38,576 nucleotides of DNA from an uncultured bacterium (GTDB lineage Bacteria; Lernaellota; Lernaellaia; Lernaellales; Lernaellaceae). Positions 6,399 through 28,155 of the stretch are shown piece after piece. The notes under the pieces were generated by a model. The model ran no database searches and was not told the origin of the DNA. It worked only from the letters and a program-made list of their open reading frames with translations. The stretch spans positions 1-38,576 of the forward strand of contig CAZHPN010000038.1 of the NCBI GenBank assembly GCA_964534375.1. Reading direction: 5' to 3'. How positions within the stretch are numbered: position 1 is the first letter of the stretch; each line of letters starts with the position of its first letter. Position numbers and translations under genes: made by a program.

Positions 6399-6422
6399 GC
6401 TTGAGCAAATCAGCGTTCTCGT

Positions 6423-10949: not shown

Positions 10950-10962
10950 CAACTAACTGATT
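10950..10962 (-). promoter_or_regulatory. IHF-consensus site
   Basis: AATCAGTTAGTTG matches WATCARNNNNTTR. Confidence 0.45.
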
Positions 10963-11131
10963 TTCAATCTCGATTACAACCGAACACCCCGAACTTAAGC
11001 ACCGTTCGGCCAGAGAAGAACCGGGTAGGGTTTTTCGAAGAGCCTTTTGGGGCCGAAAATCGGTCTCGACGACGCTTGAATCCGCCAACGCCGGCGGTCC
11101 CGTGCGCGGCCGGCGGACGCGCCCGAATCGA

Positions 11132-11144
11132 TAACTAGCTGATA
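11132..11144 (-). promoter_or_regulatory. IHF-consensus site
   Basis: TATCAGCTAGTTA matches WATCARNNNNTTR. Confidence 0.45.
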
Positions 11145-11271
11145 TTTATTGGATTTCCTTGGATCGCAGCGGCGTTTGAAGAAGTAGCGGCGGCGCTACC
11201 CTTGTTCCCGGTCCGACTCACGGGCCGGAGGCGGCGCTTTGTAAGGAATACGGAAGTGGCGCCGCCTGCTC

Positions 11272-12402: not shown

Positions 12403-12441
12403 GATTCGCCTCTCTTTCCAGACCCTTCACATCATGTGCAT

Positions 12442-12458
12442 AGCAAAAGCCGCGCCAA
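12442..12458 (-). promoter_or_regulatory. Sigma54 (-24/-12) promoter for X2
   Basis: TTGGCGCGGCTTTTGCT has GG-N10-GC with the TGGC/TTGC consensus, 40 nt upstream of the ATG. Confidence 0.75.
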
Positions 12459-12700
12459 CCTCGGGATGCTGCAATATGGCGCACCTACCGTCGCGCGCCG
12501 CGGTTTGATCGGCCAAAAAGTAACGGGTTGTTTCCAGATGAAAAGGCGCCAGACAGTTCTCGAGTTCGGGAGAAGGTCCGGTCATGAGCGGCGAAGCATT
12601 GAGCCGCGCAAAGGGACTTGATTGCCGCCGCACGTCTGGCCGTGCCTCTCTGCCGCTATTCAGGAGTTTCCTGTTTTCGCCGGAAGGCTTCGCCTCGGTT

Positions 12701-12730
12701 CAATCCGCAATCCGCAATCCGCAATCCGCG
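12701..12730. repeat. Heptamer tandem repeat (CAATCCG)4
   Basis: Seen directly; the same unit recurs at 17852-17883. Confidence 0.9.
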
Positions 12731-12768
12731 AATTTGGTTGTGGCTTTGCCGCGTTGCGTACGCGCCGG

Positions 12769-13899
12769 TTATTGGTCTTGCGCCCAACTGAGAACATGTG
12801 CCGGTTCGGAGAGCACGCTATACGCCGAGGAGTAGGTGTACCAGAAGTTCGGGTCGGAATTATTCGTGAATTGGCTGGGATTCTGGACGTCGATCGAGCC
12901 GAAGCAGGTGACGACGCCGGTGAACATGATCTTGCCGTGCAACTCGTAATTGCCCTGGGCATACACGAGGCCGTTCAGCGAGCTTTGTGCGTTGGTGTCG
13001 AAGTTGAGCAGGACATCGCTCTGGGACACCATCGAGACGGTGGCGCCGCTGCTGACGAATCCGCCTTCGCCGATGATGCTGCCGGTGGCGATGATCGTGC
13101 CGATGCCGCTGAGCGAACCGTTGAGCGTCACGTTGCCGTCGACGAAGATCGTGCGCTGGCCGGAGGGGCCGACCGGAATTGTGCTGAAATCCAGATTGTT
13201 GAACGTAACATTCGTATCCAAGCTGCCGAAAATGCCATCCGTGTCGTAGTAGGCGCTGGGCGCGGCCTGCTGGGCGAGGCCCAGCCACTGGGCCTGCGTC
13301 ATGGCGATCGCCCCGAGGTCCATGGGCGCCGAATTGACGCGGTTCACCGCGTTGTTGCCAGTGACGGTGAGGGTGCTGGAAGGCGGCATGTACATGTTGA
13401 TCGTCGGCGTCCCGGGGTCGAGATCGAGATTCCCGCTGCCATTGACGCGCACGCCTTGCGAGGAAATACGCGGCTTGCCCGACATCGTAATGTTGCCGCC
13501 GCCGTTGAGCGCCGCGGTATAGGCCGAATCGGTCGAAACGACCGCCTCGACGACCTTCTCCGCCTGCCCCTTGCGGCCGGTGGCGACGACGCGGACGAGC
13601 GAGCCCGACAATACCGTCACGGTCGTCACGTTCGTTGTGTTGTTCGTCAACGTCGGCGGCGTGACCGTGCCGGTGAACGCGCTGTTCTGCCGCAGCGTCT
13701 GCAACCCCTGCTGCAACCCGGCCTCGGCGGCCCAGAACGCCGCCGCGCTATCGCGGTAATTGCCGGCGACGCGGATGTCGCCGACGACGACGGTCAGCGC
13801 GGCCATGCCCAGCACCGACACGGCGGCCATCATCATCAGCACGATCAACATCACCATGCCGCGTTGGTCTGCCGCCCACGTGATCTTGTTTTTTTTCAT
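12769..13899 (-). CDS. PilX-like minor pilin (X1)
   Basis: QRG|MVMLIVLMMM, AFWAAEAGLQ; starts 18 nt after the stop of giant pilin A. Confidence 0.82.
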   Translation of the reverse strand: MKKNKITWAADQRGMVMLIVLMMMAAVSVLGMAALTVVVGDIRVAGNYRDSAAAFWAAEAGLQQGLQTLRQNSAFTGTVTPPTLTNNTTNVTTVTVLSGSLVRVVATGRKGQAEKVVEAVVSTDSAYTAALNGGGNITMSGKPRISSQGVRVNGSGNLDLDPGTPTINMYMPPSSTLTVTGNNAVNRVNSAPMDLGAIAMTQAQWLGLAQQAAPSAYYDTDGIFGSLDTNVTFNNLDFSTIPVGPSGQRTIFVDGNVTLNGSLSGIGTIIATGSIIGEGGFVSSGATVSMVSQSDVLLNFDTNAQSSLNGLVYAQGNYELHGKIMFTGVVTCFGSIDVQNPSQFTNNSDPNFWYTYSSAYSVLSEPAHVLSWAQDQ

Positions 13900-13917
13900 G
13901 GCCAACTCGTTATTTTC

Positions 13918-16900
13918 TTATGGGCACGTTCCCGAACCCGCTCCGGCGATATGGCCCGAACAGTTTTGCGATTCGTTGCCCGATAGATCGAGCGCCGTAA
14001 TGTAGTAGTCGTAACAGTTCTTGTTGGTTTGCGAGCAGGTCGTGTCGGAATACGACGTTCCGGACACGTTCGTGGCGATCTTGCTGAACGTGCCGCCCTT
14101 GACCGTTCGATAAATGTTGTAGCCCGAAATGTCCGGCTCGGAGTTGGCGGTCCACGTCAAGTTGATCGTCGAGTTGCCGCTGCCTTTCGTCGCGGTCAGG
14201 CCGGTCGGGCACGCCGGCGGCGTCGTATTCGCAATGTAGTCGTAACAATATGCGCCCGTCGCCGGGGTGCGGCCGGTATTGGCGGCGTTGTCGACCGCCC
14301 CGAAATACAGCCAGACCCGAGCGCCGTGGTTGTAAGGGATCGTCCCGGCCCAGTCGACGTTCGTCGAGTTGTACGTCAGCGCCAGCGAAGCGTAGCCCGA
14401 GGTCGGCGCCACGGTTTGAAATTTCGAGTCGACGTAGTAATAGGCGGTCGAACTGGCGATGCCCTTGCCGCTCTGATCGGTGACGACGACGTGGGTGGGC
14501 ACCGGGTAGTAGTTCTTCACCTGGATCGCGGCCTCCACCGTCGAGCACAGCGTGTCCAGCGCCGGCTGGTCCTGCTCCGCCAGCGTCAACAGCGGCGCCC
14601 CCTGGAACGTGACGTTCGCCTGGGCGCTGGAGCAAGTGTTGCCGGTCGTGCCGGCTTTCTGGTAACCGGCGACCAACGTCAACTGCATGCCGTAGATGTC
14701 CACGTTGTCGGGAGATGAATTGTGCCAAAGCGTGGCCCCGGAACTGTAGGTGTGCGTCAGATTGTTCGTCAGGGTGATCTGGCTGCCCGTGATGCTGCCG
14801 ATCACGTTCGAATCGGACGTGGTTCCGTTGGTGAGATAGATCGCGTCGCCGACCAGGAAACCCGTGGTCGACGCAACCTGCAAAACCTTTTGCCCCGACG
14901 CCGCCGAGGAGGTCAACGTCGTCGAAACCTGGGTGAATGTCAGGCGAATCGTGTCCTTTCCGCTGGCGGGAATCGACGGCTGGCTGCCGGCCGGGATGGC
15001 GATCACCGTGCCCGACGCGGCTGGCGCGCCGGAGTAGGTCCAGATGACGGTCCCGGTCGGAATTTCCACCGTTTTAAGCCGCGCCTGCACGGTGTTCCAG
15101 GTGAATGTAAAGTTCTGGATGACCGAAGCGTCGCCGCTGGCGTCGTTGCCCAAACCGAACGAGCCCTGATTGTTATACGTGCCGCCGACGGTCGGCGTCA
15201 CGGTTTGGTCGACGTAAAAGCCGCCGTCGTGAATCGTCACGGTTACAGATGCGACGGCCGTTTGGCCCGTCATCGAGTCGGTGGCCTCCGCGCTGAGCGT
15301 GTACAGGGCGTCGCACCACTGGGTCACGCTGCCGGCCGAACACGGGTTCGAACTGCCGCCGAAGCCGCAATATTGGATGGCCGTTGGCGTTACCGGGAAC
15401 TGGCCCGTGCCGGGGTCGGGCGTCACCCACATCTTGACGCTGGAAATGCCCTTGCCGTTGTCGGTCGACATGTTCGGCGGGTTGGAAACGGCCGGAGAAT
15501 CGGGGGCGTAGGCGCAGGCCTCGAAAACCAACTGGCCGTTGGTGACCGTCGAGCCAGTGGTCGGCGACGAAATCTGAACCACCGGCGGCGTGGCGCCCGG
15601 CGTCGCGTAGGCGTTGGCCGCGGCGGAATAGAGCAGACACTTGTTGTAAGCAAAAATGCTGAAGAAATACTTCGTCCCGTTGGTCAGGCCGGTGGCGGTC
15701 GTCGTCATCGCCTGGTTGGGCGAACCCGCGAGATTGGCGACCAGCGTGCCGGAGGTGGTCGACGTTGGGTAACCGGTCGTGCTCGAGCGGATCATCACGC
15801 CGGCAAAATCGCTGTCCGGCGAATTCGTCCAGTACAGGTCGACCGCCTGGTATCGCGCGGAGGCGGTGAACAGCGTCGGCACGGCAGGGCCCGTCGCGGG
15901 CGACTTGGTCGCGGTGGTGTTGGTGACGCCGTTGTTCGGTTGATCGGGGCCCGTGCCCTGGCCGTTGCCGTAGATTTCGTTGGACGGCGGGCCTTCGTTG
16001 GCGCAGTCGACCGCGGTGATGACGTAATGGTACTCGGTGCACGGCACGACGGTGGTGTCCGTGAAGGTCGTCGTGCCCTCCGTCAGGGTCGTTTCGTTCG
16101 CGACCTGGTTGGCCTGCGTCACCGTGACCGGCGAGGCCGTCGTGCGGTACACGCGGAAGCCGCGGATGTCGGGGGTGTTCGGCGGCGGCGTCCAGGTGAG
16201 CGTGACCGTGCCCGGGCCGGCCGTGGCGTCGCCGCTGGGCGCGCCGGGCGGATTCTGGTCGACGATCGTGATGCTGATTTCGCTCGATTTCGCGGATTCG
16301 TTGAAGCTGGTGTCATAGGCCGTGACGGCGACGTAGTAGGTTTGGTTGTTGTTCAGCCGGACATCCTGCACTGTCGCCGAAGTCACGTCAGGCGGTGAAA
16401 TATTGTCCGGCGGCGAAAGATACGTGCCGGTGCCCGTGCCGTAATACACGTGGTAGCCGGCCAGGTCGGTCAACGGCGAGCCGTCGCACGCGTTGGTCGT
16501 CGGCGGCGTCCAACGGATGCCGAACTGGCCGCAGGTGTTGTCCTGCGTGACCTGTAGATTGGTGGGCGGATTCGGCGCGCAGTTGGTGGTTGTGTACGGA
16601 CGGTTGCCCATGTTGCGCAATTCGATCCAGTGCGTGTAATTCGGCGCCGAGTTTGCCGCCACGCCGCCGGCTTGCAAGCGCAATTCGATGCTGCGGATCG
16701 CCGCGCACTGCGTCGAGTTCAGGCCGTTGACCGGGTCGGGCGTCATTTCCGTGTTCGTCTGGTCGAAATAATGAAATTCCAGATTCGTGAGCCGGTCGCT
16801 GAGCGTAACGCCGTTGCGCGTGAGCACGCCCGACGGAAACGCCACCGAGTAGGTCACGGTCTGGATGGTGCGCACGAGCGTCTGGCCCGCCGTATAGGAA

Positions 16901-17394
16901 TTTTGCAGCGGGGTGTTCAAATGCAACGTGGGGGGATTGGTCGTGTAGTCGACGAGCGTGCCGCTTTGCGCGACCTGGTCCATTTCCACATTCCCGCTGC
17001 CGCCGTTGAGAAACACGTAATCGGTGGCGCCGATGACCGTGTGGCCGGACGTGAGCGGCAGTTGGATGCTCGTTGCGCCGGCCGAGGCGTTCGCCGACAG
17101 CATCTGCACGACGTTCGACTGGAGGTCGCCGGAGAACTGCACGGAATAGAGCTTGGCCTGCGTGAACGTCGCCTGGCCGATAACGCCGAAGCCGGCCATG
17201 CGCAACTCGCGGCTCAATTGTTCGAGCGTCGCGCGGGACGATTGCCCGGCGGACGAAATGTGGGTGATGTTCGCCAGCCCGCGATGCTGGCTCAAGAACA
17301 CGTAGCACGCCCCGCCGATCAACAACATCGTCAAGGCGAGCGTGACCACCAGTTCGATCAACGTAAAGCCGCGTTGTCCGCCAAGTTTTTTCAT
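13918..17394 (-). CDS. Giant PilW-like prepilin fused to FN3/Ig-like domains (copy A), 1158 aa
   Basis: True start is MKKLGGQRG|FTLIELVV at 17394 (ATGA overlap); colinear with copy B along its whole length. Confidence 0.85.
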   Translation of the reverse strand: MKKLGGQRGFTLIELVVTLALTMLLIGGACYVFLSQHRGLANITHISSAGQSSRATLEQLSRELRMAGFGVIGQATFTQAKLYSVQFSGDLQSNVVQMLSANASAGATSIQLPLTSGHTVIGATDYVFLNGGSGNVEMDQVAQSGTLVDYTTNPPTLHLNTPLQNSYTAGQTLVRTIQTVTYSVAFPSGVLTRNGVTLSDRLTNLEFHYFDQTNTEMTPDPVNGLNSTQCAAIRSIELRLQAGGVAANSAPNYTHWIELRNMGNRPYTTTNCAPNPPTNLQVTQDNTCGQFGIRWTPPTTNACDGSPLTDLAGYHVYYGTGTGTYLSPPDNISPPDVTSATVQDVRLNNNQTYYVAVTAYDTSFNESAKSSEISITIVDQNPPGAPSGDATAGPGTVTLTWTPPPNTPDIRGFRVYRTTASPVTVTQANQVANETTLTEGTTTFTDTTVVPCTEYHYVITAVDCANEGPPSNEIYGNGQGTGPDQPNNGVTNTTATKSPATGPAVPTLFTASARYQAVDLYWTNSPDSDFAGVMIRSSTTGYPTSTTSGTLVANLAGSPNQAMTTTATGLTNGTKYFFSIFAYNKCLLYSAAANAYATPGATPPVVQISSPTTGSTVTNGQLVFEACAYAPDSPAVSNPPNMSTDNGKGISSVKMWVTPDPGTGQFPVTPTAIQYCGFGGSSNPCSAGSVTQWCDALYTLSAEATDSMTGQTAVASVTVTIHDGGFYVDQTVTPTVGGTYNNQGSFGLGNDASGDASVIQNFTFTWNTVQARLKTVEIPTGTVIWTYSGAPAASGTVIAIPAGSQPSIPASGKDTIRLTFTQVSTTLTSSAASGQKVLQVASTTGFLVGDAIYLTNGTTSDSNVIGSITGSQITLTNNLTHTYSSGATLWHNSSPDNVDIYGMQLTLVAGYQKAGTTGNTCSSAQANVTFQGAPLLTLAEQDQPALDTLCSTVEAAIQVKNYYPVPTHVVVTDQSGKGIASSTAYYYVDSKFQTVAPTSGYASLALTYNSTNVDWAGTIPYNHGARVWLYFGAVDNAANTGRTPATGAYCYDYIANTTPPACPTGLTATKGSGNSTINLTWTANSEPDISGYNIYRTVKGGTFSKIATNVSGTSYSDTTCSQTNKNCYDYYITALDLSGNESQNCSGHIAGAGSGTCP

Positions 17395-17891
17395 TGCGCC
17401 ACCACCGTCTGCAGTGACACCTGGAACCCCGATTGATCGGTCACGAGCACCTGGATAGTCACGGCCGAGTCGTCGCTGTTGGGCGTGACGATCACCTGTT
17501 CTTTGTACCGCGGAAAACCTGGAATCTGGCCGAAGTTCTGGGTCGAGGAAACGATCGACGTGAACGAATCGAGCTTGATCTGTTCGAGCGTGGCGTTGGC
17601 CAGCGTCGTCATGTTCGTAATCGATTGCGAAAACGTCTGGCGTTTCGCGGCGGTGGACATCGACGCCGCCAGACTCAGCAAGCCGATCGTCAGCAGAAAG
17701 ATTCCGACGACGACTTCGACCAGCGTGAAGCCGTCGGCGCGCCGAGGTCCGGGGCTCGGGATTCGGGATTCGGGATTCGGGTTCCCGCCTTCGCCAAGGC
17801 TTCGGCGGACAGGGCGGGTTCCGGGTTCCGGGTCCCGGGTTCGGAAACCCACAATCCGCAATCCGCAATCCGCAATCCGCAATGGGCTCAT
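17391..17891 (-). CDS. PilV/GspI-like minor pilin (copy A) with a repeat-expanded leader
   Basis: G|FTLVEVVVGIFLLTIGLL; ATG 17891 overlaps the upstream stop (ATGA); 54-aa leader versus 14 aa in copy B. Confidence 0.8.
   Translation of the reverse strand: MSPLRIADCGLRIVGFRTRDPEPGTRPVRRSLGEGGNPNPESRIPSPGPRRADGFTLVEVVVGIFLLTIGLLSLAASMSTAAKRQTFSQSITNMTTLANATLEQIKLDSFTSIVSSTQNFGQIPGFPRYKEQVIVTPNSDDSAVTIQVLVTDQSGFQVSLQTVVAQ
17754..17883. repeat. Composite repeat: (GGGATTC)n + REP-like palindrome + (CCGGGTT)n + (CAATCCG)4
   Basis: Seen directly within the pilin leader coding sequence. Confidence 0.85.
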
Positions 17892-18536: not shown

Positions 18537-18751
18537 AATCCGGTCCGTGAATTCCGGTCGTTTTCTTCGCGTCCCGTCCCGCGGCACGCCCGCTCACATT
18601 ACAAAAAGTCACGCGGCATTACAAATCGTACGATTCTTCGCGCTGGGAATTTCCCGGCGTTGCGTCCGCCGTCCCGGGCTCCCGATTGCCTGCCGCGAAT
18701 CCCGACTTATCTTCAGAAAAAACAACCGACCATCTACCGGGAGATATTCTC

Positions 18752-19930
18752 ATGAATAAGGAATTAAGTCGACGGGAATTTGTCAAGCTGGCAGGCGCCG
18801 CGGTTATTGGCGCCCCGTTTGCTGGACTATTTTTCGAGGGCGGCGCGGCGGCGGGCGACGGTTTTTATTTCCTCCAGCTCACCGACACGCACTGGGGGTT
18901 CGACAAGCCGGCGATCAACCCCGATTTCGCGGGCACGTTGAAGAAGGCATTCGCCCGGGTCAACGCCCTGCCGCGGCAGCCGGATTTCATCGTCTTCACC
19001 GGCGACTTGACGCACACGACGGACGACGACAAGGTCCGCCGCCAGCGGATGTTTGAGTTCAAAGAGATGGTCAAGGGGCTCACCGTGCAGAACATCAAGT
19101 TTCTGCCGGGCGAGCACGACGCGTCGTTGGACGGCGGCAAGGCGTTCCAGGACTTCTTCGGGGCGACGCATTACGCTTTTGAGCACAAGGGCGTGCACTT
19201 CATCGCGCTGGACAACGTCTCGGATCCGCGCGGCATCGTCGGCGACGCGCAGTTGGCGTGGCTCCACGACGAATTGAAAAAACTCGCCGCCAACGACCGG
19301 CTCATTATCCTGACGCACCGGCCGCTCTTCGACCTCGCGCCCGATTGGGATTGGGCGACCCGCGACGGCGGCAAGGTCCTCGAGTTGCTGGCCCCGTTCC
19401 ACAACGTCAGCGTGCTGTACGGCCACATTCACCAGGTGAACCGCCAGAAGACCGGGGCGATCGAACACAACAGCGCCATGGGGCTGATGTACTCGTTTCC
19501 CGCGCCGCATGCCGTGCCGAAAAAAGCCGCGATTCCGTGGGATCCGACGCATCCGTACGCCGGCCTAGGTTATCGCGAGGCCCAGTTGGCTCCGGCCGCG
19601 GCGATGACGCTGGTCGAGATCCCGCTGGTCGCCAAAGCCGCGGCGGCGGCCGGCGACGCGGTCATCGCCGTCACCGCGAAGCAATTCGAGTTCAAGCCGA
19701 GTGAAATCACCGTGAAAAAGGGCGTCCCCGTCGTGCTGGCGTTCACGTCGCTCGACAAGACGCACGGCTTCAATTGCCCGGGTCTGAAAATCCGCACGGA
19801 CATTCCGCCGGGCAAGACGACCGAAGTGCGGCTGGTTGCCGAGCAAACGGGGCGTTTCCCCTTCCATTGCGATGTTTTTTGCGGCGACGGCCACGAGGAC
19901 ATGACCGGGACGATCATCGTCACCGAGTAG
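18752..19930 (+). CDS. Tat-exported metallophosphoesterase fused to a C-terminal CuA-type cupredoxin domain
   Basis: SRREFVK Tat motif; DTH, TGDL, GEHD, HRP and GHIH calcineurin-like motifs; HGF...CDVFCGDGHEDM CuA motif. Confidence 0.88.
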   Translation: MNKELSRREFVKLAGAAVIGAPFAGLFFEGGAAAGDGFYFLQLTDTHWGFDKPAINPDFAGTLKKAFARVNALPRQPDFIVFTGDLTHTTDDDKVRRQRMFEFKEMVKGLTVQNIKFLPGEHDASLDGGKAFQDFFGATHYAFEHKGVHFIALDNVSDPRGIVGDAQLAWLHDELKKLAANDRLIILTHRPLFDLAPDWDWATRDGGKVLELLAPFHNVSVLYGHIHQVNRQKTGAIEHNSAMGLMYSFPAPHAVPKKAAIPWDPTHPYAGLGYREAQLAPAAAMTLVEIPLVAKAAAAAGDAVIAVTAKQFEFKPSEITVKKGVPVVLAFTSLDKTHGFNCPGLKIRTDIPPGKTTEVRLVAEQTGRFPFHCDVFCGDGHEDMTGTIIVTE

Positions 19931-20091: not shown

Positions 20092-20226
20092 GTTTTCGTC
20101 CCGCCAACATATCTGGCGCCAGCGCCAGCGCCCGCTGCGTCCCGCTGGGATTGACCGTCGTTGTTCGAACGGGGTAACCTCAATCCAAGTCGGCTTGAGA
20201 AAATACTCCCTTCGGTGAGGTGTCGC

Positions 20227-21540
20227 ATGAACAAACATTTGCCTTTCGCGCTAGGACTGCTCGCGATCCTGGCGCTTGCCGCGTCGCTGGCGATTTGCAT
20301 CGCCGACGGAACCGGCGTCACGAACAATCCGGCCTTCGCCGCGGACGCGGCGACGGGCGCGATCCCGTGGTCACCGGTGGTTTCCTCCGCCAGTGCGGCT
20401 TTGGGCGACCGCGCCTGCGGCCCGTTCAATTGCTTCACCGGCTGCTGCGATTCGAACGGCGACTGTCAGCCCGGCAACACGGACAGCGTCTGCGGCGCCG
20501 GCGCGCAGCAGTGCGAAAATTGCGGAACGAACGGCGAATATTGCGACGATCGCCGGCAGTGCTCGCCGGGCCGGGCGTGCCGCGGGGGGGAATGCCAGAA
20601 CGGCTGTTGCGACGCCAATCGGCAATGCCAGAGCGGCAACGACGACGCCTATTGCGGCGGCGGCGGACAAGCCTGCGTCAATTGCGCCGGCGAAGGCCAG
20701 TCCTGCGAGAATCAGCAATGCGCGGCCAGCGGCTGCAACCCGCAATCCTGCCCCAACGGCTGCTGCGATTCGGCGAGCCAGACCTGCCAGCCGGGCGACA
20801 CGAGCGACCTGTGCGGGTCGGGCGGCCAAGCGTGCGTGGCCTGCGCGCCGGGCGACTATTGTCAGGGCGGCCAGTGCATCTCCCCCAGCGACGACGACGA
20901 CAACGACAACGACGACGCGGTGAATCCGGACTGCGAGGTCGTGGCCAACGGCATCGCCAACACCTGCAAATACAGCTACTACGATTTGACCGGCCAGGCG
21001 CTCGACGCGGCGTCGCTGGTGCAGTGGTGCGACGCCTGCGAAGCGTTGTTCGGCAAGTCGCTTTCGTCGCCGTTCTTCAACTGCGCCGAGTCCTGCGTGG
21101 TCGGCTCCCCGGCCTGCCAGAACAGTTGCTTCGCCGTCTGCCAGACGCCCGGCGATCCCGGCGGCACTGGCTGCCCGCACACGGTGCATGTGATTTACTC
21201 GTGCGAACTGGCCTTCCCGCTCACCGGGTTGCCCAACCTCTACGTGCCGGAACTGGACGAAGAAACGCTGTGCCAATCCGACACGCAGCACGCCTGGGCG
21301 TGCTATGCGCAATGCGCGGCGAACGACCCGTGCTCCAGCCCGCCGACCGAGGCGGAAGCCACCGCGATGATGAATTGCCTGAGCGCCTGCGGCGGGGCCG
21401 TCGATGACGACAACGACACGGTCGACGACGACGCGGCCGACGACGACGCCTCGCCGGCCGATGACGATTCGTCGCCAGCCGACGACGATGCGTCGCCGGG
21501 CCCGAAGGCGGCCGCGAGCAGCACCGGGTGCGGCTGCTGA
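20227..21540 (+). CDS. Secreted Cys-rich repeat protein with Asp-rich linkers and C-terminal GCGC
   Basis: Signal-like N-terminus; three C..GCCD....CQ.G..D..CG.GGQ.C..C repeats; DDDASPA repeats; ends SSTGCGC. Confidence 0.8.
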   Translation: MNKHLPFALGLLAILALAASLAICIADGTGVTNNPAFAADAATGAIPWSPVVSSASAALGDRACGPFNCFTGCCDSNGDCQPGNTDSVCGAGAQQCENCGTNGEYCDDRRQCSPGRACRGGECQNGCCDANRQCQSGNDDAYCGGGGQACVNCAGEGQSCENQQCAASGCNPQSCPNGCCDSASQTCQPGDTSDLCGSGGQACVACAPGDYCQGGQCISPSDDDDNDNDDAVNPDCEVVANGIANTCKYSYYDLTGQALDAASLVQWCDACEALFGKSLSSPFFNCAESCVVGSPACQNSCFAVCQTPGDPGGTGCPHTVHVIYSCELAFPLTGLPNLYVPELDEETLCQSDTQHAWACYAQCAANDPCSSPPTEAEATAMMNCLSACGGAVDDDNDTVDDDAADDDASPADDDSSPADDDASPGPKAAASSTGCGC

Positions 21541-21563: not shown

Positions 21564-21592
21564 AGGGGCGCGGCGTGTCGCGCCCCTTTTTT
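21564..21592 (+). terminator. Intrinsic terminator
   Basis: AGGGGCGCG...CGCGCCCCT stem followed by a T run. Confidence 0.8.
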
Positions 21593-21625: not shown

Positions 21626-21654
21626 TTGACAGGTCCGAGCGCGGTTTGTATTAA
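21626..21654 (+). promoter_or_regulatory. Putative sigma70 promoter for rrf2
   Basis: TTGACA-N17-TATTAA. Confidence 0.5.
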
Positions 21655-21678: not shown

Positions 21679-22122
21679 GTGTTGTCGAAAAAAGCCAAAT
21701 ACGGCCTCAAAGCTCTGATCGCCCTCGGCCGCGACGGCGACGGCGGACCGATGCTGATCGCCGATCTCGCGGCCCGGGAGCGCATTCCGCTCAAGTACCT
21801 CGAACTGATCCTGCTCGAACTGAAAAAGCACGGCGTGGTGCACAGCAAGAAAGGCAAGGGCGGCGGCTATCAGCTCGGCCGCGACCCGCGCGACATCGTC
21901 TTCAGCGAGGTGTTGCGCATCCTCGACGGCCCGCTGGCCCTGACGCCGTGCGTCAGCGAAACCGCCTACCGCCGCTGCGACGAATGCCTCGACGTCGAGA
22001 CCTGCGGCATCCGCGTGACGATGAAGCAGGCGCGCGACGCAGTGGTGGGCGTGTTCGACCGGACGACGCTGGCGGCGGTGATCGCCCGCGAAAAAAAGCT
22101 GCTTGCGGCGGCGAAAAAATAG
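21679..22122 (+). CDS. Rrf2 family transcriptional regulator (IscR/CymR-like, Cys-containing)
   Basis: MLSKKAKYGLKAL, IPLKYLELIL, SKKGKGGGYQL, DGPLALTPC...CDEC.....C. Confidence 0.95.
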   Translation: MLSKKAKYGLKALIALGRDGDGGPMLIADLAARERIPLKYLELILLELKKHGVVHSKKGKGGGYQLGRDPRDIVFSEVLRILDGPLALTPCVSETAYRRCDECLDVETCGIRVTMKQARDAVVGVFDRTTLAAVIAREKKLLAAAKK

Positions 22123-22125
22123 GGC

Positions 22126-22173
22126 TTGCGCGGGCTTTTTTTTCGTCGTATAGTCTAGTTAGTCAATAGACTA
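22126..22173 (+). promoter_or_regulatory. Sigma70 promoter overlapped by a palindromic operator (probable Rrf2 site)
   Basis: TTGCGC-N17-TATAGT; perfect inverted repeat TAGTCTA-N9-TAGACTA at 22151-22173. Confidence 0.7.
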
Positions 22174-22208
22174 AATCGTTGACATCGACAATGTAGGGAG
22201 ATCGCGAC

Positions 22209-23006
22209 ATGACGCAGCAGGCAATCGAACGCATCACGGTGCTGGCGGGCCAGGGCCGCAGCGGCCGGCGCGACGAATTCGAGCGCATCGATCTGGCGAT
22301 CGGCGACGTCGTCTCGATCGTCGGGCCGACGGGTTCGGGCAAGACGACGCTGATCAACGACCTGGAGTTGTTCGCCGACAACGACACGCCGACCGGGCGC
22401 CGCGTGCTGATCGACGGGCAGCGGCCGCCGGCCTCGTACAAAGAGAACCCGTCGAGCAACCCGATCGCGCTGATCACGCAGCACACCAATTTCCTCTCGG
22501 ATCTGCCGGTGGAGCTGTTCCTGCGGACGCACGCCGGCATCCGCACGCAGAACCCGTCGCGCGTCGGCAAGCTGGTCGAGGAAACGATCGTTTTCGCCAA
22601 CCAGTTGACCGGCGAGCCGATCATTCTCGAAAGCCGCATGACGGAGCTGTCCGGCGGCCAGACGCGGGCCCTCTTGATCGCCGACGCGACGATCGTCTGC
22701 AACACGCCGATCGTGCTGCTCGACGAGGTGGAAAACGCCGGCATCAACCGCACCCGCGCGCTCGAACTGCTGCGCGCCTATCGCAAGATTTTCATTTTCG
22801 TCACGCACGATCCGCGCATCGCGCTGTTGTCCGATTACCGCATCGTGATGGAGGAAGGCCGCGTCACGAAATTGATCCACACCACCGACGAGGAAAAACG
22901 GTGCGCGGTGGAAGTGAGCAAACTCGACGACCTGTTGGCCCGCCTGCGCGACAAACTCCGGCACGGGCTGCAATTGCAAATGAGCGATATGGAGGGATGG
23001 GCATGA
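22209..23006 (+). CDS. ABC-type ATPase with no permease partner
   Basis: Walker A GPTGSGKT, signature LSGGQ, Walker B IVLLDE, H-loop VTHD. Confidence 0.9.
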   Translation: MTQQAIERITVLAGQGRSGRRDEFERIDLAIGDVVSIVGPTGSGKTTLINDLELFADNDTPTGRRVLIDGQRPPASYKENPSSNPIALITQHTNFLSDLPVELFLRTHAGIRTQNPSRVGKLVEETIVFANQLTGEPIILESRMTELSGGQTRALLIADATIVCNTPIVLLDEVENAGINRTRALELLRAYRKIFIFVTHDPRIALLSDYRIVMEEGRVTKLIHTTDEEKRCAVEVSKLDDLLARLRDKLRHGLQLQMSDMEGWA

Positions 23007-23704
23007 AGATGGCAATGTGCGCCGGTCCGGCCACGACCGGCAAGACCTCGGTGCTGCGGCACGTCACGAAAAAACTGCAAGCGCGCGGCGACAAGCCGGC
23101 TTTCCTTAAGATCGACGTCCAGTACGCCGACGAAGACGAAACTTTCGCCCGCGATTTCGGCATCCCCACGCGCAAGGTGTATTCGGGCGAGCTTTGCCCC
23201 GACCACTGCAGCGTCATGGTCCTCGGCGACGCGCTGCACTGGGCCGAGGCGCAGGGCTGCAACATCCTGCTGGTCGAGACGGCCGGCCTGTGCCTGCGCT
23301 GCTCGCCGTACGCCGAAGGCGGCCTGGGCATCGTCGTGCTCGAAGCGACCAGCGGCATGAACCTGCCGTTCAAGGTCGGGCCGATGCTCTCGCTGGCCGA
23401 CGTCGCGGTCGTGACGAAAATCGACTGCGTGTCGCAGGCCGAGCGCGAAGTGTTCCGCGCGCGCATCCACGAAGTCGCGCCGGCGGTGAAGGTGCGGGAG
23501 GTCAACGGCCTGTACGGCATCGGCATCGATCCGCTGATCGAGATGATCCACAACTCGCCGGACACGTTCGACGGCATGATGCTGCGCGGCAATCCGCCGG
23601 TCGGCACGTGCACCATTTGCGTCGGCAAGAAGGAAATCGGCTGGCAGGCGCATTTCGGCGTCGTGCGGCCGCTCGACGATCAAACGTTCTACCGGGGCGA
23701 GTGA
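23003..23704 (+). CDS. HypB/UreG (G3E)-type P-loop GTPase, putative metallochaperone
   Basis: GPATTGKT, CPDH, VETAGLCLRCSP, TKID, C-terminal CTIC; RBS GGAGG and ATGA overlap. Confidence 0.85.
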   Translation: MKMAMCAGPATTGKTSVLRHVTKKLQARGDKPAFLKIDVQYADEDETFARDFGIPTRKVYSGELCPDHCSVMVLGDALHWAEAQGCNILLVETAGLCLRCSPYAEGGLGIVVLEATSGMNLPFKVGPMLSLADVAVVTKIDCVSQAEREVFRARIHEVAPAVKVREVNGLYGIGIDPLIEMIHNSPDTFDGMMLRGNPPVGTCTICVGKKEIGWQAHFGVVRPLDDQTFYRGE

Positions 23705-23707
23705 GCC

Positions 23708-24907
23708 ATGCCGGCCCGCGCTTATTTCGACCACTCGGCGACGACGCCGCTCGATCCGCGCGTCGTCGAGGCGATGCAGTTGCCGCTCGGCGCCTGCCAC
23801 GGCAACCCGTCCAGCCTGCATTGGGCCGGGCGCGAGGCGAAGGCGGCGCTCGACCGCGCGCGGCGGCAGGTGGCCGCGCTCCTCGGCGCACAGCCGGAGG
23901 AGATCTTCTTCACCGGCAGCGGCACGGAAGCGGTGAACCTGGCCATGAAGGGCGTCTTCGAGGCCAACGGCAGCGGTCCATGCCACATGCTGATCGGCGC
24001 GATCGAACATCAGGCGTCGATCGCCACGGCGGAATATCTGCAGCGGCGCGGCGCGGAGGTCGATCGCCTGCCCGTCGACGGCGACGGCCTGGTCGACCCG
24101 GATGAAGTCGCGCGGCGCATTCGCCCGCAGACGCGCCTGGTTTCGGTGATGGCCGCCAACAACATCGTCGGCACGTTGCAGCCGATCGCAGCGATCGCCC
24201 GCCTCGCGCACGAACGCGGCGTGTTGTTCCACACCGACGCCGTGCAGGCGGCCGGGAAGATTCCGCTCGACATGAGCATGGCGCCCATCGATTTGCTGTC
24301 GTTGTCCGGCCATAAAATCTACGGCCCGAAAGGCGTCGGCGCGTTGTACGTGCGGGCGGGCACGCCGCTCGAACCGCTGATTCACGGCGGCGGCCAGGAA
24401 CGCAACGTGCGCTCCGGCACCGAGAACATGAGCGGCGTCGTCGGTCTGGGCGCCGCGGCGGAAATCGCCGCCGCCGAGCGCGCCGACGAAGCGGCGTGGC
24501 TGACCGGCTGCCGCGACCGCCTGATCGACGCCGTGCTCGAACGAATTCCGAATGCGCGTCTGCTCGGCCACCGCTGGCGGCGCCTGCCGGGCCACATCTG
24601 CCTGATGTTCGACGGGCAGGAAGGCGAGGCGATCCACCTGCTGCTGGCGCTCGACGAAGAAGGCTTCGCCGTTTCGTCGGGCAGCGCGTGCAGTTCGAGC
24701 CATGCGAGCGAACCGTCGTACGTGCTGCTGGCGATGGGCTTGGACGCCGTCCGCGCGCGCGGCTCGTTGCGCATCACGCTGGGCCGCTTCAACACCGAGG
24801 ATGAGATCGAGCGGTTCATCGACGTGCTGCCGCGCGTCGCCGCGAAGCTGCGGCCGCTCACTCTGCATTCTGAAAAATCCATTCCTTTCGAAAGGAGTCC
24901 CTTATGA
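23708..24907 (+). CDS. iscS: Group I cysteine desulfurase (IscS/NifS family)
   Basis: YFDHSATTP, GNPSS, HTDAVQ, SGHKIYGPKG, RSGTEN, SSGSACSS. Confidence 0.93.
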   Translation: MPARAYFDHSATTPLDPRVVEAMQLPLGACHGNPSSLHWAGREAKAALDRARRQVAALLGAQPEEIFFTGSGTEAVNLAMKGVFEANGSGPCHMLIGAIEHQASIATAEYLQRRGAEVDRLPVDGDGLVDPDEVARRIRPQTRLVSVMAANNIVGTLQPIAAIARLAHERGVLFHTDAVQAAGKIPLDMSMAPIDLLSLSGHKIYGPKGVGALYVRAGTPLEPLIHGGGQERNVRSGTENMSGVVGLGAAAEIAAAERADEAAWLTGCRDRLIDAVLERIPNARLLGHRWRRLPGHICLMFDGQEGEAIHLLLALDEEGFAVSSGSACSSSHASEPSYVLLAMGLDAVRARGSLRITLGRFNTEDEIERFIDVLPRVAAKLRPLTLHSEKSIPFERSPL

Positions 24908-25638
24908 GCGCCATTGCTGCGCCCGCGCTGCCCGGACTGGATTGCGGCCTCTGCGGCTATCGCACCTGCGACGAACTGGCCGCGCAACTCGGCGCCAAGC
25001 CGGATCTGCTGAAGCGCTGCATCATGCTGTCGGACGACAAAGCCAAAGCGAAAAAATCCGACGCGCCGCCGCGCGCCGCCGCGTCGCAGGCCGCGCCGCC
25101 GCTGACCTCCTGCGCCGCCGCGGGCGCCGCCGCGCCCTGCCGCCAGATGCGGCCGATCAACGAGAAAGAGCCGTGGAAAGACAGCCTCGGCCGCGATTTC
25201 GATTTCTACCTGGAGCATTTCCCGGAAGAACCCGGCCCGCGCGAGACGATCCTGCCGCACAACCCGATGATCACGCGCGAGATGGATATCCAGGTGGGCG
25301 ACATCCTCATCGGCCGGCCGCTGGGCATGTCGTGCGGCTGTCCGATCACCCACTGCGGCGTGACGATGAGCGTCGACAAGCGCACGGGCGTCATCGTCTG
25401 GTGCGTTACCGGCCCGCTGAATCCGCGCCAGGGCAAATACAAGGATTTGGGATATTATATCGCCGAAGCGTACGACGGCCTGATCACCGCCGCGCGCGGC
25501 GACGTCCGCATCGGCGAACGCTATTTCTTCCAGCCGCGCATGTGCATGCTGCAATGGCGCCACAGCGGCCTGGTCAATTATCTCAACCGCACCAAAGGCC
25601 AGATGCAAGTCCGGCTGGAAGGTTTGTGGATCGGGTGA
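24904..25638 (+). CDS. (Fe-S)-binding protein with an uncharacterised C-terminal domain
   Basis: LPGLDCGLCGYRTC...C (RnfB-N-terminal-type 4Fe-4S motif); C-terminal CGCPITHCG and C...HSG; ATGA overlap. Confidence 0.85.
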   Translation: MSAIAAPALPGLDCGLCGYRTCDELAAQLGAKPDLLKRCIMLSDDKAKAKKSDAPPRAAASQAAPPLTSCAAAGAAAPCRQMRPINEKEPWKDSLGRDFDFYLEHFPEEPGPRETILPHNPMITREMDIQVGDILIGRPLGMSCGCPITHCGVTMSVDKRTGVIVWCVTGPLNPRQGKYKDLGYYIAEAYDGLITAARGDVRIGERYFFQPRMCMLQWRHSGLVNYLNRTKGQMQVRLEGLWIG

Positions 25639-25653: not shown

Positions 25654-28155
25654 CTAGTTGTTCTTCGCGCACCGGAAGCCGAAATTGTTGAAAGCGTATT
25701 GCGGCGGGTAGCCGAAGCGGTTCGAAACGCGCAGGCCGCGCGGCTCGAAATACCAGCAGCCGCCGCGCAGCGCCCGCGTCGTGCCCGAAAACGGCCCCGG
25801 CGGATTGTTCGCCGTCGACGACGCATAATAGCCCTCGTCGAACCAATCGGCGCACCATTGCCACACGTTGCCTAGCATGTCGTACAGGCCCCAGGAATTG
25901 GGTTGCCTGGCGCCGACCGCATGCGTCGCGCCGCCGGCGTTGCGGGCGTACCACGCGATCGCGTCCAGCTTGCCGTAGCGCGGTCCGGTCGACCCGGCGC
26001 GCGCCGCGTACTCCCACTCGGCCTCGGTGGGCAGGCGTTTGCCGGCCCAGCGGCAATAGTCGCGCGCGGCCGCCCAGTCGACGCAGACCACCGGTTGGTT
26101 CGGACCGTTCCACTCTGGATCTTGCGAGCAACTCGACGGCTTGCAGGCGCCGGTCGCGGCGCATTTGCGATATTGGGCGTTGGTCACCGGGGTTGCGTCC
26201 AGCCAGAAGGCGTCGAGCGTGACGCGATGCGGCGGCTGCTCGGCGTCGAAGCACTCGGCGTCGCCCGGCGAACAACCCATCGTAAAACTCCCGGCTGGGA
26301 TTTTGACCATGGCGGCGAGATCGGCCGGCGCGGCGGCCTGCGCCGCCGCCTCGGGCGAAATCTCCGGCGCGGCTGCGGCGGGCGCAACGTCGCGAACGCA
26401 ACGGAAGCCGACGTCGGCGGCCCCGGTCGCGGAATCCTCGTAGCCGCGGCAGGAAGCGCGCACGGCGCGGGGGCCGCTTTTCCAACTGCCGCCGCGGATT
26501 ACATGCCCGGCGCGGGTGGTCGTCGGGCCTTTGGGGTTTTCCAGCGGCGAGGTGGCGTAATAGTCGATGGCCTTCCGGTCGCTGCAATATTCCCAAACGT
26601 TGCCGCTGATGTCGCACAAGCCGTAGAAGTTGCGGGCCATCGCGCAGACCGGCGACGTGCCGGCGTACTTGTCGTCGTAACCGAGAAAAATGGTGCGGCT
26701 GGGCGTCTCGCGCTTGGCGGTTTCGTCGGCGTAGTTGCCATATCGTGGCGGCGGCATGCCGGAGTCGCCCCACGGAAACACCTTCTTTTCGAGCCCGCCG
26801 CGCAAGGCGTATTCATATTCCGCCTCGGTCGGCAGACGTTTCCCGCGCCACGCGCAATACGCCGCGGAATCGTTCCAATCGACGCCGTTCACCGGGTGGT
26901 CCAGATGTTTGTGATTGCCCCAATTGAAATGCGGCCCGCTCGCCGCGTCGCCGGAGGCCGCCGGTTGCTGGCACGCGCCCGCTTGGACGCATTGTTGATA
27001 TTCGGACACGGTCACCGGATGTTCGTCCATCAGAAAACCGCTGATCGTCGTGCGGTGCGCCGGTTTTTCGTCGCTGCTGCATTGCAGATCGCCCGGCGCG
27101 CAACCCATGGTGAACGCGCCGCCGGGGATCCTGATCATGCCGGCCGCGCTGCCGGCGGCGGCGGTCGATGCAGCGGGCGCCGGCGGCGCCGCCGGGCGGG
27201 CCGCGGCCGGCGCGCGCGGCAGCGATTGGTCCGCCGGGGCCGGCGCCCGGGCCGACTCGACTGGCGCTTCGTCGCGCGCGCAACGGAAGCCGACGCCGTC
27301 GCCGACAAGGTCGGGCTGGCTGGCCGACCGCGCCGACGCGCGCAGGTATTTGGCGTCGTCGAACCAACAACCGCCCCGCGTCACGCGGTTCAGGCCCGAG
27401 CCGGGGCCGGTCGGGTTGTTTTTGGGCGAGGACTCGTAGTAGGTGTCGTCGAACCAATCGGCGCACCACTGGAAGACATTGCCGAACATATCGTAGAGGC
27501 CCCAGGCGTTGGGTTGTTTTTCGCCGGCGGGATGCGGCCGGCCGCCGGAATTGAGCGCGCACCAGGCGATCGCTTCGAGTTCGCCGTAGCGCGGCCCGGG
27601 CGAGCCGGCGCGCGCGGCGTATTCCCATTCCGCCTCGGTCGGCAGGCGTTTCCCCAATTTGGCGCAGTACGTTTGGGCGTCTTTCCAGGGGACGGGCGCC
27701 GCGGGGCAGGTGGGGCAATCCCGCGCCGCGGCGAAGTCGGTCTTGGTTTCCATGACGCGCTCGTATTCGGCGATCGTCACCGGCCGCGCATCCAGATAAA
27801 ATCCGCGCAGGACCACGCGATGCGCAGGCTTTTCGTTTTGGCGACATTCCGTGTCGCCCGCGGTGCAGCCCATGACGAATGTCCCGGGCGGAATTCGCGC
27901 CATGCCGGCCGGACCCGGCGCGCTGCCGGGTGGCGAGTCGGCGGCGGCCGGACCGCGGCCGAAGAAGTACGCCGCGCCGAGCAAAACTACGCCAACGCCC
28001 GCGAAACGCAGGATTTTCAGCAAGCCGTCCCGAACCACACGCACGCTCTCTGCCGCGCGTTGCGCGGCGCACCCGGCCGCCGCAAACATACGAAACATCC
28101 CGCCGGCGACCGTTGTCGTGCGACGATCATTGCCCGCGCGGGCGGCCCGCGTCAA
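25654..28155 (-). CDS. Protein with three FGE/SUMF1-like (C-type lectin fold) domains; start uncertain
   Basis: Three copies each of F.MGC..GD..C, RLPTEAE(W/Y)EYA.R, GNVW(Q/E)-like, RGG(C/S)W and GFRC; N-terminal hydrophobic segment; Ala/Pro linkers. Confidence 0.9.
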   Translation of the reverse strand: MTRAARAGNDRRTTTVAGGMFRMFAAAGCAAQRAAESVRVVRDGLLKILRFAGVGVVLLGAAYFFGRGPAAADSPPGSAPGPAGMARIPPGTFVMGCTAGDTECRQNEKPAHRVVLRGFYLDARPVTIAEYERVMETKTDFAAARDCPTCPAAPVPWKDAQTYCAKLGKRLPTEAEWEYAARAGSPGPRYGELEAIAWCALNSGGRPHPAGEKQPNAWGLYDMFGNVFQWCADWFDDTYYESSPKNNPTGPGSGLNRVTRGGCWFDDAKYLRASARSASQPDLVGDGVGFRCARDEAPVESARAPAPADQSLPRAPAAARPAAPPAPAASTAAAGSAAGMIRIPGGAFTMGCAPGDLQCSSDEKPAHRTTISGFLMDEHPVTVSEYQQCVQAGACQQPAASGDAASGPHFNWGNHKHLDHPVNGVDWNDSAAYCAWRGKRLPTEAEYEYALRGGLEKKVFPWGDSGMPPPRYGNYADETAKRETPSRTIFLGYDDKYAGTSPVCAMARNFYGLCDISGNVWEYCSDRKAIDYYATSPLENPKGPTTTRAGHVIRGGSWKSGPRAVRASCRGYEDSATGAADVGFRCVRDVAPAAAAPEISPEAAAQAAAPADLAAMVKIPAGSFTMGCSPGDAECFDAEQPPHRVTLDAFWLDATPVTNAQYRKCAATGACKPSSCSQDPEWNGPNQPVVCVDWAAARDYCRWAGKRLPTEAEWEYAARAGSTGPRYGKLDAIAWYARNAGGATHAVGARQPNSWGLYDMLGNVWQWCADWFDEGYYASSTANNPPGPFSGTTRALRGGCWYFEPRGLRVSNRFGYPPQYAFNNFGFRCAKNN

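Follow-up and report, generated by a model that had tools for sequence, protein, structure and literature searches.

What is made by an operon that encodes a cysteine desulfurase, an ATP-binding cassette (ABC)-type ATPase, a G3E-family GTPase, and an iron-sulfur (Fe-S) protein, yet none of the scaffold proteins that define the established systems for Fe-S cluster assembly? Such a four-gene operon, preceded by a gene for an Rrf2-family regulator, lies on contig CAZHPN010000038.1 of the draft genome of an uncultured bacterium of the Lernaellaceae (assembly GCA_964534375.1; 94.43% complete). We refer to the whole stretch of DNA that was analyzed, 38,576 nucleotides long, as the window, and to the draft genome as the window genome. 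A first-pass annotation, made from the sequence alone, had proposed a noncanonical system for Fe-S or metal-sulfur assembly, with the GTPase or the Fe-S protein inferred to act as scaffold or client. Part of this proposal holds, in that the genes are inherited together, the linked desulfurases form a dedicated lineage, and no scaffold accompanies them. Other results speak against it: The conserved core is a trio of ATPase, GTPase, and Fe-S protein, the neighbors of this trio are sulfur-assimilation genes, the ATPase is not SufC-like, and in a sample of 101 genomes the trio shows no complementarity with SUF genes. We favor the view that the operon is specialized for sulfur metabolism and does not serve general Fe-S cluster biogenesis. 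Because its counterparts in many anaerobes and methanogens keep company with sulfur-assimilation genes, it probably acts on inorganic sulfur by a route that has not yet been described.

A widespread gene trio with a dedicated desulfurase

Homologs of the operon were collected in two sets. A scan of one genome per species gave 204 loci of the window's own, close clade, and the best 80 were kept; a further 80 loci of a distant clade came from metagenome contigs, for which the query was an alignment of divergent family members that included named sequences from Methanophagales and Methanoregula. By record title, the close loci span about 15 phyla, among them Chloroflexota, Planctomycetota, Acidobacteriota, Verrucomicrobiota, Thermodesulfobacteriota, Nitrospirota, Elusimicrobiota, Omnitrophota, Hydrogenedentes, Armatimonadota, Bdellovibrionota, Eremiobacterota, Lentisphaerota, and others, and GTPase identity across them is 69%–82%. 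All but one of the 80 records carry a metagenome-assembled-genome mark in the title, the exception being Bdellovibrionota bacterium FG-1. Genes for the Fe-S protein, GTPase, and ATPase were found in 80, 76, and 72 of these loci, respectively, with the misses attributable to contig ends, and their order is always ATPase-GTPase-(NifS)-Fe-S protein. The distant loci hold the same three genes in the same order (Fe-S protein 80, GTPase 76, ATPase 62), at identities to the window proteins of 44%–53% for the ATPase, 48%–58% for the GTPase, and 26%–44% for the Fe-S protein. In a GTPase tree, built with FastTree from 71 close rows and every fourth of the 46 distant rows (12 in all), the two clades split with a support of 100. 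The idea that the four genes are inherited as a unit was thus borne out by a shared gene order in 80 loci of other genomes, and the first-pass annotation was right that anaerobes and methanogens have comparable gene sets, with the trio present in about 15 bacterial phyla and in a methanogen-type clade. The four-protein module is horizontally mobile, and in the window it forms a self-contained operon.

The desulfurase is the variable member. It has the motifs of an active enzyme of its class, with the pyridoxal phosphate-lysine motif SGHK and the catalytic Cys loop SSGSAC conserved in 49 rows, and scores 456.1 bits against the NifS model TIGR03402, below the cut-off of 530.75. Among the 76 close loci that have both GTPase and Fe-S protein, the NifS gene lies between the two in 52, directly after the Fe-S protein gene in one, and is absent from 23, absence being judged at a threshold of at least 50% identity. 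A NifS-like match occurs in only one of the 80 distant loci, and there it is not adjacent, so that adjacent NifS is found in none of them. Linkage that was merely sporadic had been named as a point that would count against a joint function; what we find is linkage that is frequent in one clade, not universal there, and missing from the other.

Where the desulfurase is linked, it is of a particular kind. In five trio-bearing genomes from five phyla, the linked copies are 58%–62% identical to that of the window, versus 31%–49% for 10 other desulfurase matches, and the window genome's own NifS paralogs are 35%–48% identical to the linked copy. A maximum-likelihood tree of 26 rows, from which matches with fewer than 300 aligned residues were left out (L176, L177, and the copy on contig C43), places 15 trio-linked NifS proteins in one clade (support 100/99), separate from 11 paralogs. 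By this phylogeny, the trio-linked enzymes form a dedicated lineage. When presence of the linked gene is mapped on the GTPase tree, 16 changes are needed, at least seven of which are forced by well-supported branches, and the variation extends to the window's family, in which one genome has Rrf2-ATPase-GTPase-NifS-Fe-S protein (G013), another of the same genus has Rrf2-ATPase-GTPase-Fe-S protein (G014), and a third has ATPase-GTPase-Fe-S protein (G015). Most simply read, these results mean that a dedicated NifS was gained once, early on, and then lost repeatedly. Two close-clade loci carry copies that seem broken: a 35%-identical NifS remnant (residues 182–392) in the 648-nucleotide gap between GTPase and Fe-S protein genes (L027:6353–7001), and a NifS gene split over three frames (L037:5817–6946). 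Both look like decay of a linked desulfurase, or else assembly errors. Judged from these comparisons, the conserved core is the ATPase-GTPase-Fe-S protein trio, and NifS is an accessory of the window's clade.

The trio itself has been seen before in methanogens. Genes for an ATPase, a Ni2+-binding GTPase, and a COG2000-domain Fe-S protein are reported in a preprint to co-localize with coenzyme M biosynthesis genes, and the role of the trio, in its words, "remains unknown" (Chadwick, Williams, Shalvarjian, Nayak; bioRxiv 10.1101/2025.02.10.637553). The three families and their order are those of the window. The window's clade differs in adding NifS, an Rrf2 regulator, and clade-specific cysteines in the GTPase (C6, C69) and the Fe-S protein (C144, C151, C167), and whereas the methanogen trio is located in coenzyme M operons, the window genome has no coenzyme M genes. 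The window module is therefore a NifS-bearing bacterial variant of an uncharacterized, methanogen-type trio family. No assignment of function to the trio was found in the literature searched, outside of which lay subscription journals and the supplements of the study cited above. One candidate identity for the M. acetivorans trio, MA3300–MA3302, proved wrong, MA3302 being MreA.

Gene neighborhoods in other genomes

In the close clade, genes downstream from the trio include those for CBS/CysK-type enzymes (16 loci), the serine acetyltransferase CysE (seven), a persulfide-dioxygenase-rhodanese fusion (five), and the O-acetylhomoserine sulfhydrylase MetY (four); sigma-54 activators adjoin the trio in eight loci. 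Sulfate uptake genes recur as well. CysT-CysW-CysA lies directly 3' of the Fe-S protein gene in L043, a matching CysA-like match is found downstream in L038, L039, L046, L047, and L051, L070 has a permease and a CysA-like match, and in L079 the trio is flanked by a sulfate-binding protein and CysT/CysW. A CysN gene and a TauE-type sulfite exporter gene lie near the trio in L071.

The distant clade has a different and more uniform context. Among its 28 loci with enough flank, 20 read trio-MMP16-cysteate synthase-ComDE, two read ComA(-ComB)-trio, one reads trio-cysteate synthase-ComDE, and five have none of these genes. A gene for a 165-residue protein stands divergently just 5' of the trio in eight distant-clade loci (for example, L110:4886–5380, minus strand) and has no NCBIfam match. 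In both clades, then, the neighborhoods point to assimilatory sulfur metabolism and not to Fe-S biogenesis or Fe-S client proteins.

Predicted properties of the trio proteins

The GTPase was modeled with a predicted local distance difference test (pLDDT) score of 83.7. Its top Foldseek matches are to HypB (2wsm, 2hf8) and UreG (4hi0, 5xkt), with E values of 5.7e-11 to 5.4e-10 and template modeling (TM) scores of 0.61–0.77, and its CPDH motif aligns with the nickel-binding CPH of UreG and the CH of HypB, the metal motif at the dimer interface. Across 71 close and 46 distant rows, seven residues (C65, H68, C97, C100, C203, C206, and H217) are conserved: H68 occurs in every row, and C65 is missing from a single close row (70 of 71) and from none of the 46 distant ones; C6 and C69 are restricted to the close clade. 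Retention of a complete HypB/UreG-type metal-site motif points to a role in metal handling. The G3E fold and this motif are what the protein shares with the nickel insertion systems HypA/HypB and UreE/F/G/D. It differs from them in scoring far below the equivalog cut-offs (HypB TIGR00073, 47 bits against 121.2; UreG TIGR00101, 21.9 against 204.2), in a C-terminal CxxC...H extension, in having no adjacent hydrogenase or urease genes, and in its pairing with an ABC-type ATPase and an Fe-S protein.

The Fe-S protein consists of an N-terminal RnfB-type Cx2Cx4Cx16C domain, a linker, and a C-terminal beta domain with conserved Cys and His residues. In the predicted structure (pLDDT 82.3) the linker (residues 47–81) is disordered, at <50, and the beta domain is confident. 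C146, P147, H150, C214, M215, and H220 are at least 90% conserved family-wide, whereas conservation of C144, C151, and C167 is confined to the close clade. The C-terminal domain had no Foldseek match at E ≤ 0.001, and in a wide VIA-align search of 48,161 chains the highest Z was 4.1, for beta-domains of phage tails. No fold was recognized; such a result from a model does not prove that the fold is new. The ESM Atlas offers a lead only, with best scores of 0.75 to PF04060 clusters. At E ≤ 0.001, 2277 relatives were found among clusters of 90% identity, which reduce to 207 clusters at 50% identity, so that the family is compact and strongly constrained. A predicted complex of the GTPase with the C-terminal domain (residues 88–244) received a score of 0.00 and a mark of 0.32, which speaks neither for nor against contact.

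The ATPase retains Walker A (GPTGSGKT), the Q-loop, LSGGQ, Walker B (LLDE), and the H-loop in 51 close rows and for the most part in 37 distant ones, and its D-loop is replaced by VENAGI, conserved in both clades. The first-pass annotation gave the ATPase an atypical D-loop (DEVENAGI) and no permease. The D-loop agrees with what we see, and no permease adjoins the ATPase in the window, the rest of the genome lying outside the search for one. Its closest solved relatives are the nucleotide-binding domains of transporters (E 2e-12), solved and curated matches reaching about 50 bits. SufC from a trio-bearing genome (TIGR01978, 359.4 bits) aligns with the window ATPase over 91 residues at 34 bits, versus 212 residues at 55 bits for CysA, and SufC is not among the 25 best of 139 NCBIfam matches. 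The window ATPase is not SufC-like. Loci in which the trio is followed by CysT/CysW, such as L043, have a CysA of their own.

Scaffolds and sulfur enzymes in trio-bearing genomes

Cysteine desulfurases of Fe-S cluster assembly come with characteristic partners: SufS with SufBC2D in SUF, SmsCB in SMS, and a U-type scaffold with NifS or IscS in the minimal NIF, ISC, and MIS systems. The window operon resembles SUF and SMS in encoding a desulfurase together with a soluble ABC-type ATPase. Neither the operon nor the genome has a SufB/SufD-like protein, however (no match to SUFBD, PF01458, in the window genome, the control being positive in 14 of 14 genomes), the ATPase is not SufC-like, and SUF includes no G3E GTPase. 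Likeness to NIF, ISC, and MIS lies in a class I desulfurase with a catalytic Cys loop and a pyridoxal phosphate lysine under an Rrf2 regulator. None of the operon's proteins matches NifU_N (PF01592), and the sole NifU_N of the genome is on another contig (C26), adjoining another NifS and Rrf2. In that cluster (L001; C26:39336–42698), NifS and Rrf2 genes are followed by one for a 232-residue NifU_N protein with a Cys-rich, zinc-ribbon-like tail; these are apparently the housekeeping Fe-S genes. The absence of a U-type or SufB-type scaffold from the operon was thus correctly noted at first pass, and because the defining scaffolds were searched for and not found, the module is not a member of ISC, NIF, SUF, or SMS.

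Has the trio taken the place of SUF? The window's small phylum, in which 4 of 17 genomes have the trio, hints that it may have done so: Within the family, SUFBD is missing from three of four trio genomes, and one weak SUFBD-like gene is present in all four trio-less genomes. Each of these eight genomes (G000, G010–G016) has either the trio or the weak SUFBD-like gene, perhaps an SmsB-like one, and only G015 has both. Of five trio genomes from five phyla, three lack SUFBD as well. A larger sample, the 101 genomes of the family of G017 (Thermoguttaceae), which we cross-tabulated by hand and for which genome completeness is not given, rejects replacement, since SUFBD occurs in 16 of the 27 trio-bearing genomes and in 38 of the 74 others. 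An order-level sample was uninformative, the trio occurring in one of 121 genomes, the centre genome itself.

The same sample was used for sulfate assimilation. Among genomes with CysW, the trio is present in 11 of 28 that have no NIR_SIR and in 12 of 43 that have it; among those lacking CysW, it is present in 4 of 30. These are weak trends only. Five genomes have the trio beside CysTW, and of these, one has NIR_SIR and one has PAPS_reduct over the cut-off. The genomes of L038, L047, L070, and L079 (G235, G236, G163, and G237; completeness not given), in which a sulfate importer operon is joined to the trio, show no NIR_SIR and no PAPS_reduct over the cut-off. Absence of NIR_SIR is also common across the 101-genome family (34 of 101).

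The window genome itself has no NIR_SIR, ComA, or COG1900 (HcyBio) match, and tblastn found no sulfate-binding protein, CysN, cysteate synthase, MMP16, or ComDE. Its only PAPS_reduct domain is a stand-alone 236-residue protein scoring 45 bits (L082; C137:1648–5100). No other sulfate-assimilation gene lies in the surroundings of that gene. The genome does encode CysK together with CysE, MetY twice (once in a cluster with CBS), and three additional full-length paralogs of NifS. The organism seems to assimilate reduced sulfur and to make its ordinary Fe-S clusters via NifS-NifU.

Operon layout, regulator, and expression

The four genes behind the Rrf2 gene (Table 1) are as tightly coupled as first described, with two ATGA overlaps and one 3-nucleotide gap. 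Read directly from the sequence, the ATPase/GTPase junction is an ATGA overlap at 23003–23006; the GTPase stop TGA (23702–23704) is separated by gcc from the NifS ATG at 23708; and NifS and the Fe-S protein gene share an ATGA at 24904–24907. The Fe-S protein gene stops 15 nucleotides from the stop of a convergent gene. A longer GTG frame from 22901 is available for the GTPase; we place the start at ATG 23003 because homologs align from residue 1. The motifs quoted at first pass (DEVENAGI, CPDHC, CLRC, CTIC, the N-terminal Cx2Cx4Cx16C, and CGCPITHC) all occur in the translations, and among close relatives they are invariant or nearly so across 51 ATPase, 73 GTPase, and 71 Fe-S protein rows. None of the five proteins reaches a named equivalog in NCBIfam.

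Table 1. Features of the operon and its control region in the window
Feature	Position	Strand	Remarks
Intrinsic-terminator-like hairpin of the gene upstream of Rrf2	21564–21587		
Promoter-like TTGACA-17 nt-TATTAA, 5' of the Rrf2 gene	21626–21654	+	found by eye
Rrf2-family regulator	21679–22122	+	147 aa, GTG start; PF02082, E 1.4e-33
Promoter-like TTGCGC-17 nt-TATAGT, before the four-gene operon	22126–22154	+	found by eye
Perfect palindrome TAGTCTA-N9-TAGACTA, candidate Rrf2 operator	22151–22173	.	7+7, 100% complementary; overlaps the -10 hexamer
Soluble ABC-type ATPase	22209–23006	+	265 aa; PF00005, 52.7 bits (cut-off 25)
G3E (HypB/UreG-type) GTPase	23003–23704	+	233 aa; PF02492, 41.2 bits (cut-off 20.7)
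Class I (NifS/IscS-type) cysteine desulfurase	23708–24907	+	399 aa; PF00266 (Aminotran_5), E 1.3e-78
Two-domain Fe-S protein	24904–25638	+	244 aa; PF04060 "FeS," 34.1 bits (cut-off 23), residues 9–40

A promoter and operator ahead of the ATPase gene are plausible from the sequence, and the operon is probably repressed by Rrf2. A scan for consensus promoters flagged none and included neither hexamer pair found by eye; it missed the pair ahead of the Rrf2 gene because its rule demands T at position 6 of the second hexamer. The candidate operator is the sole such site in the 6.3-Mb genome at up to two mismatches, where about three would be expected from composition. The palindrome is not conserved 5' of the ATPase gene in 49 other loci, the best palindromes of which share no sequence with it. 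A search for a wider regulon by means of the palindrome names no further target, because of this uniqueness.

The regulator passes only the superfamily model (107.3 bits, cut-off 73.3) and is below the equivalog cut-offs of IscR (70.9 against 207.55), CymR (70.9 against 195), RirA (49.6 against 193), and NsrR (42.6 against 182). It is about 37% identical to the Rrf2 proteins of relatives and carries a Cx8Cx2Cx5C motif (C91, C100, C103, and C109), the four cysteines of which are missing from 33 other trio-linked Rrf2 proteins, encoded 5' of the trio in 33 close-clade loci. CymR-type Rrf2 regulators control cysteine metabolism in Firmicutes. The trio-linked regulators are similar in that they lack these cysteines, have CymR as the best specific model in four of four tested, and precede, 3' of the trio, cysK, cysE, and CBS-type genes. 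They differ in that all scores are below the CymR cut-off and in that the window protein has its four cysteines.

Contigs from four metatranscriptome runs (two studies) match, without a differing letter, parts of the Rrf2, ATPase, and GTPase genes, the NifS/Fe-S protein junction, and the Fe-S protein gene. One covers 22186–22367, two cross the ATPase/GTPase junction (22974–23161 and 22969–23286), and one crosses the NifS/Fe-S protein junction (24891–25235); stretches without such contigs (e.g., 23363–23664) carry no meaning. Four DNA runs labeled as wetland metagenome contain 45%–94% of the sampled words.

The flanks of the operon hold genes of other kinds. Upstream of the Rrf2 gene, 20161–21540 (plus strand) encodes a 459-residue protein with an N-terminal hydrophobic stretch, Cys-rich repeats (C..GCCD....C.PG), and an Asp-rich tail, which has no Pfam or NCBIfam match. 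It is preceded at 18686–19930 (plus strand) by a gene for a calcineurin-like phosphoesterase fused to a C-terminal cupredoxin-like domain behind a Tat-like signal, and 3627–17868 (minus strand) is occupied by a pseudopilin-like cluster (PilX_N, N-terminal methylation motif), two very large fn3-bearing proteins of 1159 and 1316 residues being among its products. Convergent with the operon, 25654–28155 (minus strand) encodes an 833-residue protein with three FGE-sulfatase (formylglycine-generating-enzyme-like) domains (E 2.4e-167).

Interpretation

Our preferred reading, to which we give a probability of roughly 0.4, is that a metal-sulfur centre of the Fe-S protein is matured with the two NTPases as the driving force, and that this protein in turn serves assimilatory sulfur chemistry. 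A metallocentre is proposed because the G3E GTPase has a complete metal site and the Fe-S protein has a target-like Cys/His domain; assimilatory sulfur chemistry is favored over general Fe-S supply because of the gene contexts. The NifS-type enzyme would draw sulfur from cysteine as a persulfide, and the GTPase, by metal delivery, and the ATPase, by ATP-driven conformational work, would build or insert the centre at C146, H150, C214, and H220, which in the window's clade C144, C151, and C167 may join. The N-terminal 4Fe-4S domain could wire this centre to an electron donor. Once matured, the Fe-S protein might supply or convert inorganic sulfur species for enzymes that form C-S bonds, namely CysK, CBS, and MetY in bacteria and cysteate synthase, ComA, and MMP16 in methanogens.

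Several observations weigh against this reading. The desulfurase is dispensable in cis, since 23 of the 76 close loci manage without it and losses have occurred repeatedly. The operon of the window sits among unrelated genes (pseudopilins, FGE-sulfatase-like, phosphoesterase), and for this reason the sulfur context is borrowed from other genomes. No sharp partner emerges from the 101-genome sample, in which NIR_SIR is present in 15 of 27 genomes with the trio and 52 of 74 without it, and CysW in 23 of 27 and 48 of 74. The four cysteines of the window Rrf2 would suit an Fe-S or redox sensor, and hence the Fe-S assembly reading discussed below. The RNA-library contigs can neither prove a single transcript nor exclude carried-over DNA, and the protein contact, the metal or cluster of the C-terminal domain, and the product are proposals drawn from genes and models.

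The alternative closest to the first-pass annotation is a stand-alone Fe-S biogenesis machine, with NifS as sulfur donor, a GTPase dimer or the Fe-S protein as scaffold, the ATPase in the part of SufC, and clusters passed to many apo-proteins. The operon does encode a desulfurase and an ATPase, the seven conserved Cys and His residues of the GTPase could fit a scaffold, and the regulator's Cx8Cx2Cx5C, the lack of SUFBD in a nearly complete genome, the distribution in the window's family, and the SUFBD-less trio genomes of other phyla all lean the same way. We nevertheless consider such a machine unlikely, in view of the broad sample with its lack of SUFBD complementarity, a separate NifS-Rrf2-NifU cluster in the same genome, a distant clade that lives in coenzyme M operons without linked NifS, an ATPase that aligns better and over more than twice the length with CysA than with SufC, and neighbors that are sulfur-assimilation genes and not Fe-S enzymes. 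That the three genes have no common function at all, the ATPase serving a permease elsewhere, the GTPase maturing some other nickel or cobalt enzyme, and their adjacency being regulatory only, is very improbable: The transporter-like ATPase leaves room for a distant permease or client, but gene order and overlapping genes recur in 160 loci of two deeply split clades, and a sulfate importer beside the trio brings its own CysA.

Two further alternatives keep the trio within sulfur metabolism. The trio might interconvert reduced sulfur (sulfide or the NifS persulfide) and sulfite, providing sulfite for coenzyme M in methanogens and, in bacteria, coupling cysteine synthesis to the uptake of sulfate or thiosulfate. 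An enzyme that uses sulfite (cysteate synthase or ComA) is indeed encoded in 23 of the 28 distant loci with enough flank, three loci hold such an enzyme without MMP16 and none holds MMP16 alone, sulfate importer genes stand 3' of the trio in the close clade, L071 has its CysN and TauE-type exporter, and four of the five genomes with the trio beside CysTW show neither NIR_SIR nor PAPS_reduct over the cut-off. Yet no user or producer of sulfite was detected in the window genome (no ComA, NIR_SIR, cysteate synthase, sulfate-binding protein, or CysN, and PAPS_reduct at 45 bits), the 101-genome trend is weak, Pfam finds no siroheme, molybdopterin, or flavin domain in the operon's proteins, and a count of three to zero is small; we regard sulfite interconversion as conceivable but rather doubtful. 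In a more specific form of this idea, the trio would be both the catalytic and the maturation core of a small enzyme that lacks siroheme and uses a metal-sulfur centre of a new type, the source of sulfite for coenzyme M in methanogens and fed from cysteine by the dedicated NifS in the bacterial clade; in some genomes such an enzyme would belong to the sulfate importer operon, where the classical sulfite and PAPS/APS reductases were not found. That form is improbable as it stands. Alternatively, the operon may be a pure sulfur relay that passes persulfide or sulfide, from NifS or as free sulfide, to CysK-, MetY-, and MMP16-type enzymes, with the NTPases as gates and no new metal centre. A dedicated, co-inherited NifS and sulfide-using neighbors would suit a relay, as would two statements in the preprint: it is unclear which sulfur species MMP16 and L-ASST use, and MMP16 becomes essential when sulfide is lacking (10.1101/2025.02.10.637553). 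Against a relay, the GTPase keeps a complete HypB/UreG metal-site motif, which points to metal handling, and the window genome has no COG1900 enzyme. Established persulfide relays (TusA, SufE, and rhodaneses) are not known to need an NTPase. We think a relay of this kind unlikely, too, and retain metallocentre maturation as the preferred reading.

Implications

The present analysis brings out a NifS lineage that is dedicated to the trio yet repeatedly lost, a test for SUF replacement with a negative outcome, the comparison with SufC, a genome in which no sulfite enzyme was detected, and cover of the operon in RNA libraries. The module occurs in about 15 bacterial phyla and in lineages of methanogens and anaerobic methanotrophic archaea (ANME), and no member has an assigned function. 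In methanogens the trio lies in an operon for coenzyme M, without which methane cannot be formed, and in bacteria the trio lies in cysteine operons and in operons for sulfate uptake. Its reaction, once worked out, would probably fill a gap in anaerobic sulfur assimilation, and could reveal a new metal-sulfur centre as well as a new job for an ABC-type ATPase paired with a G3E GTPase.

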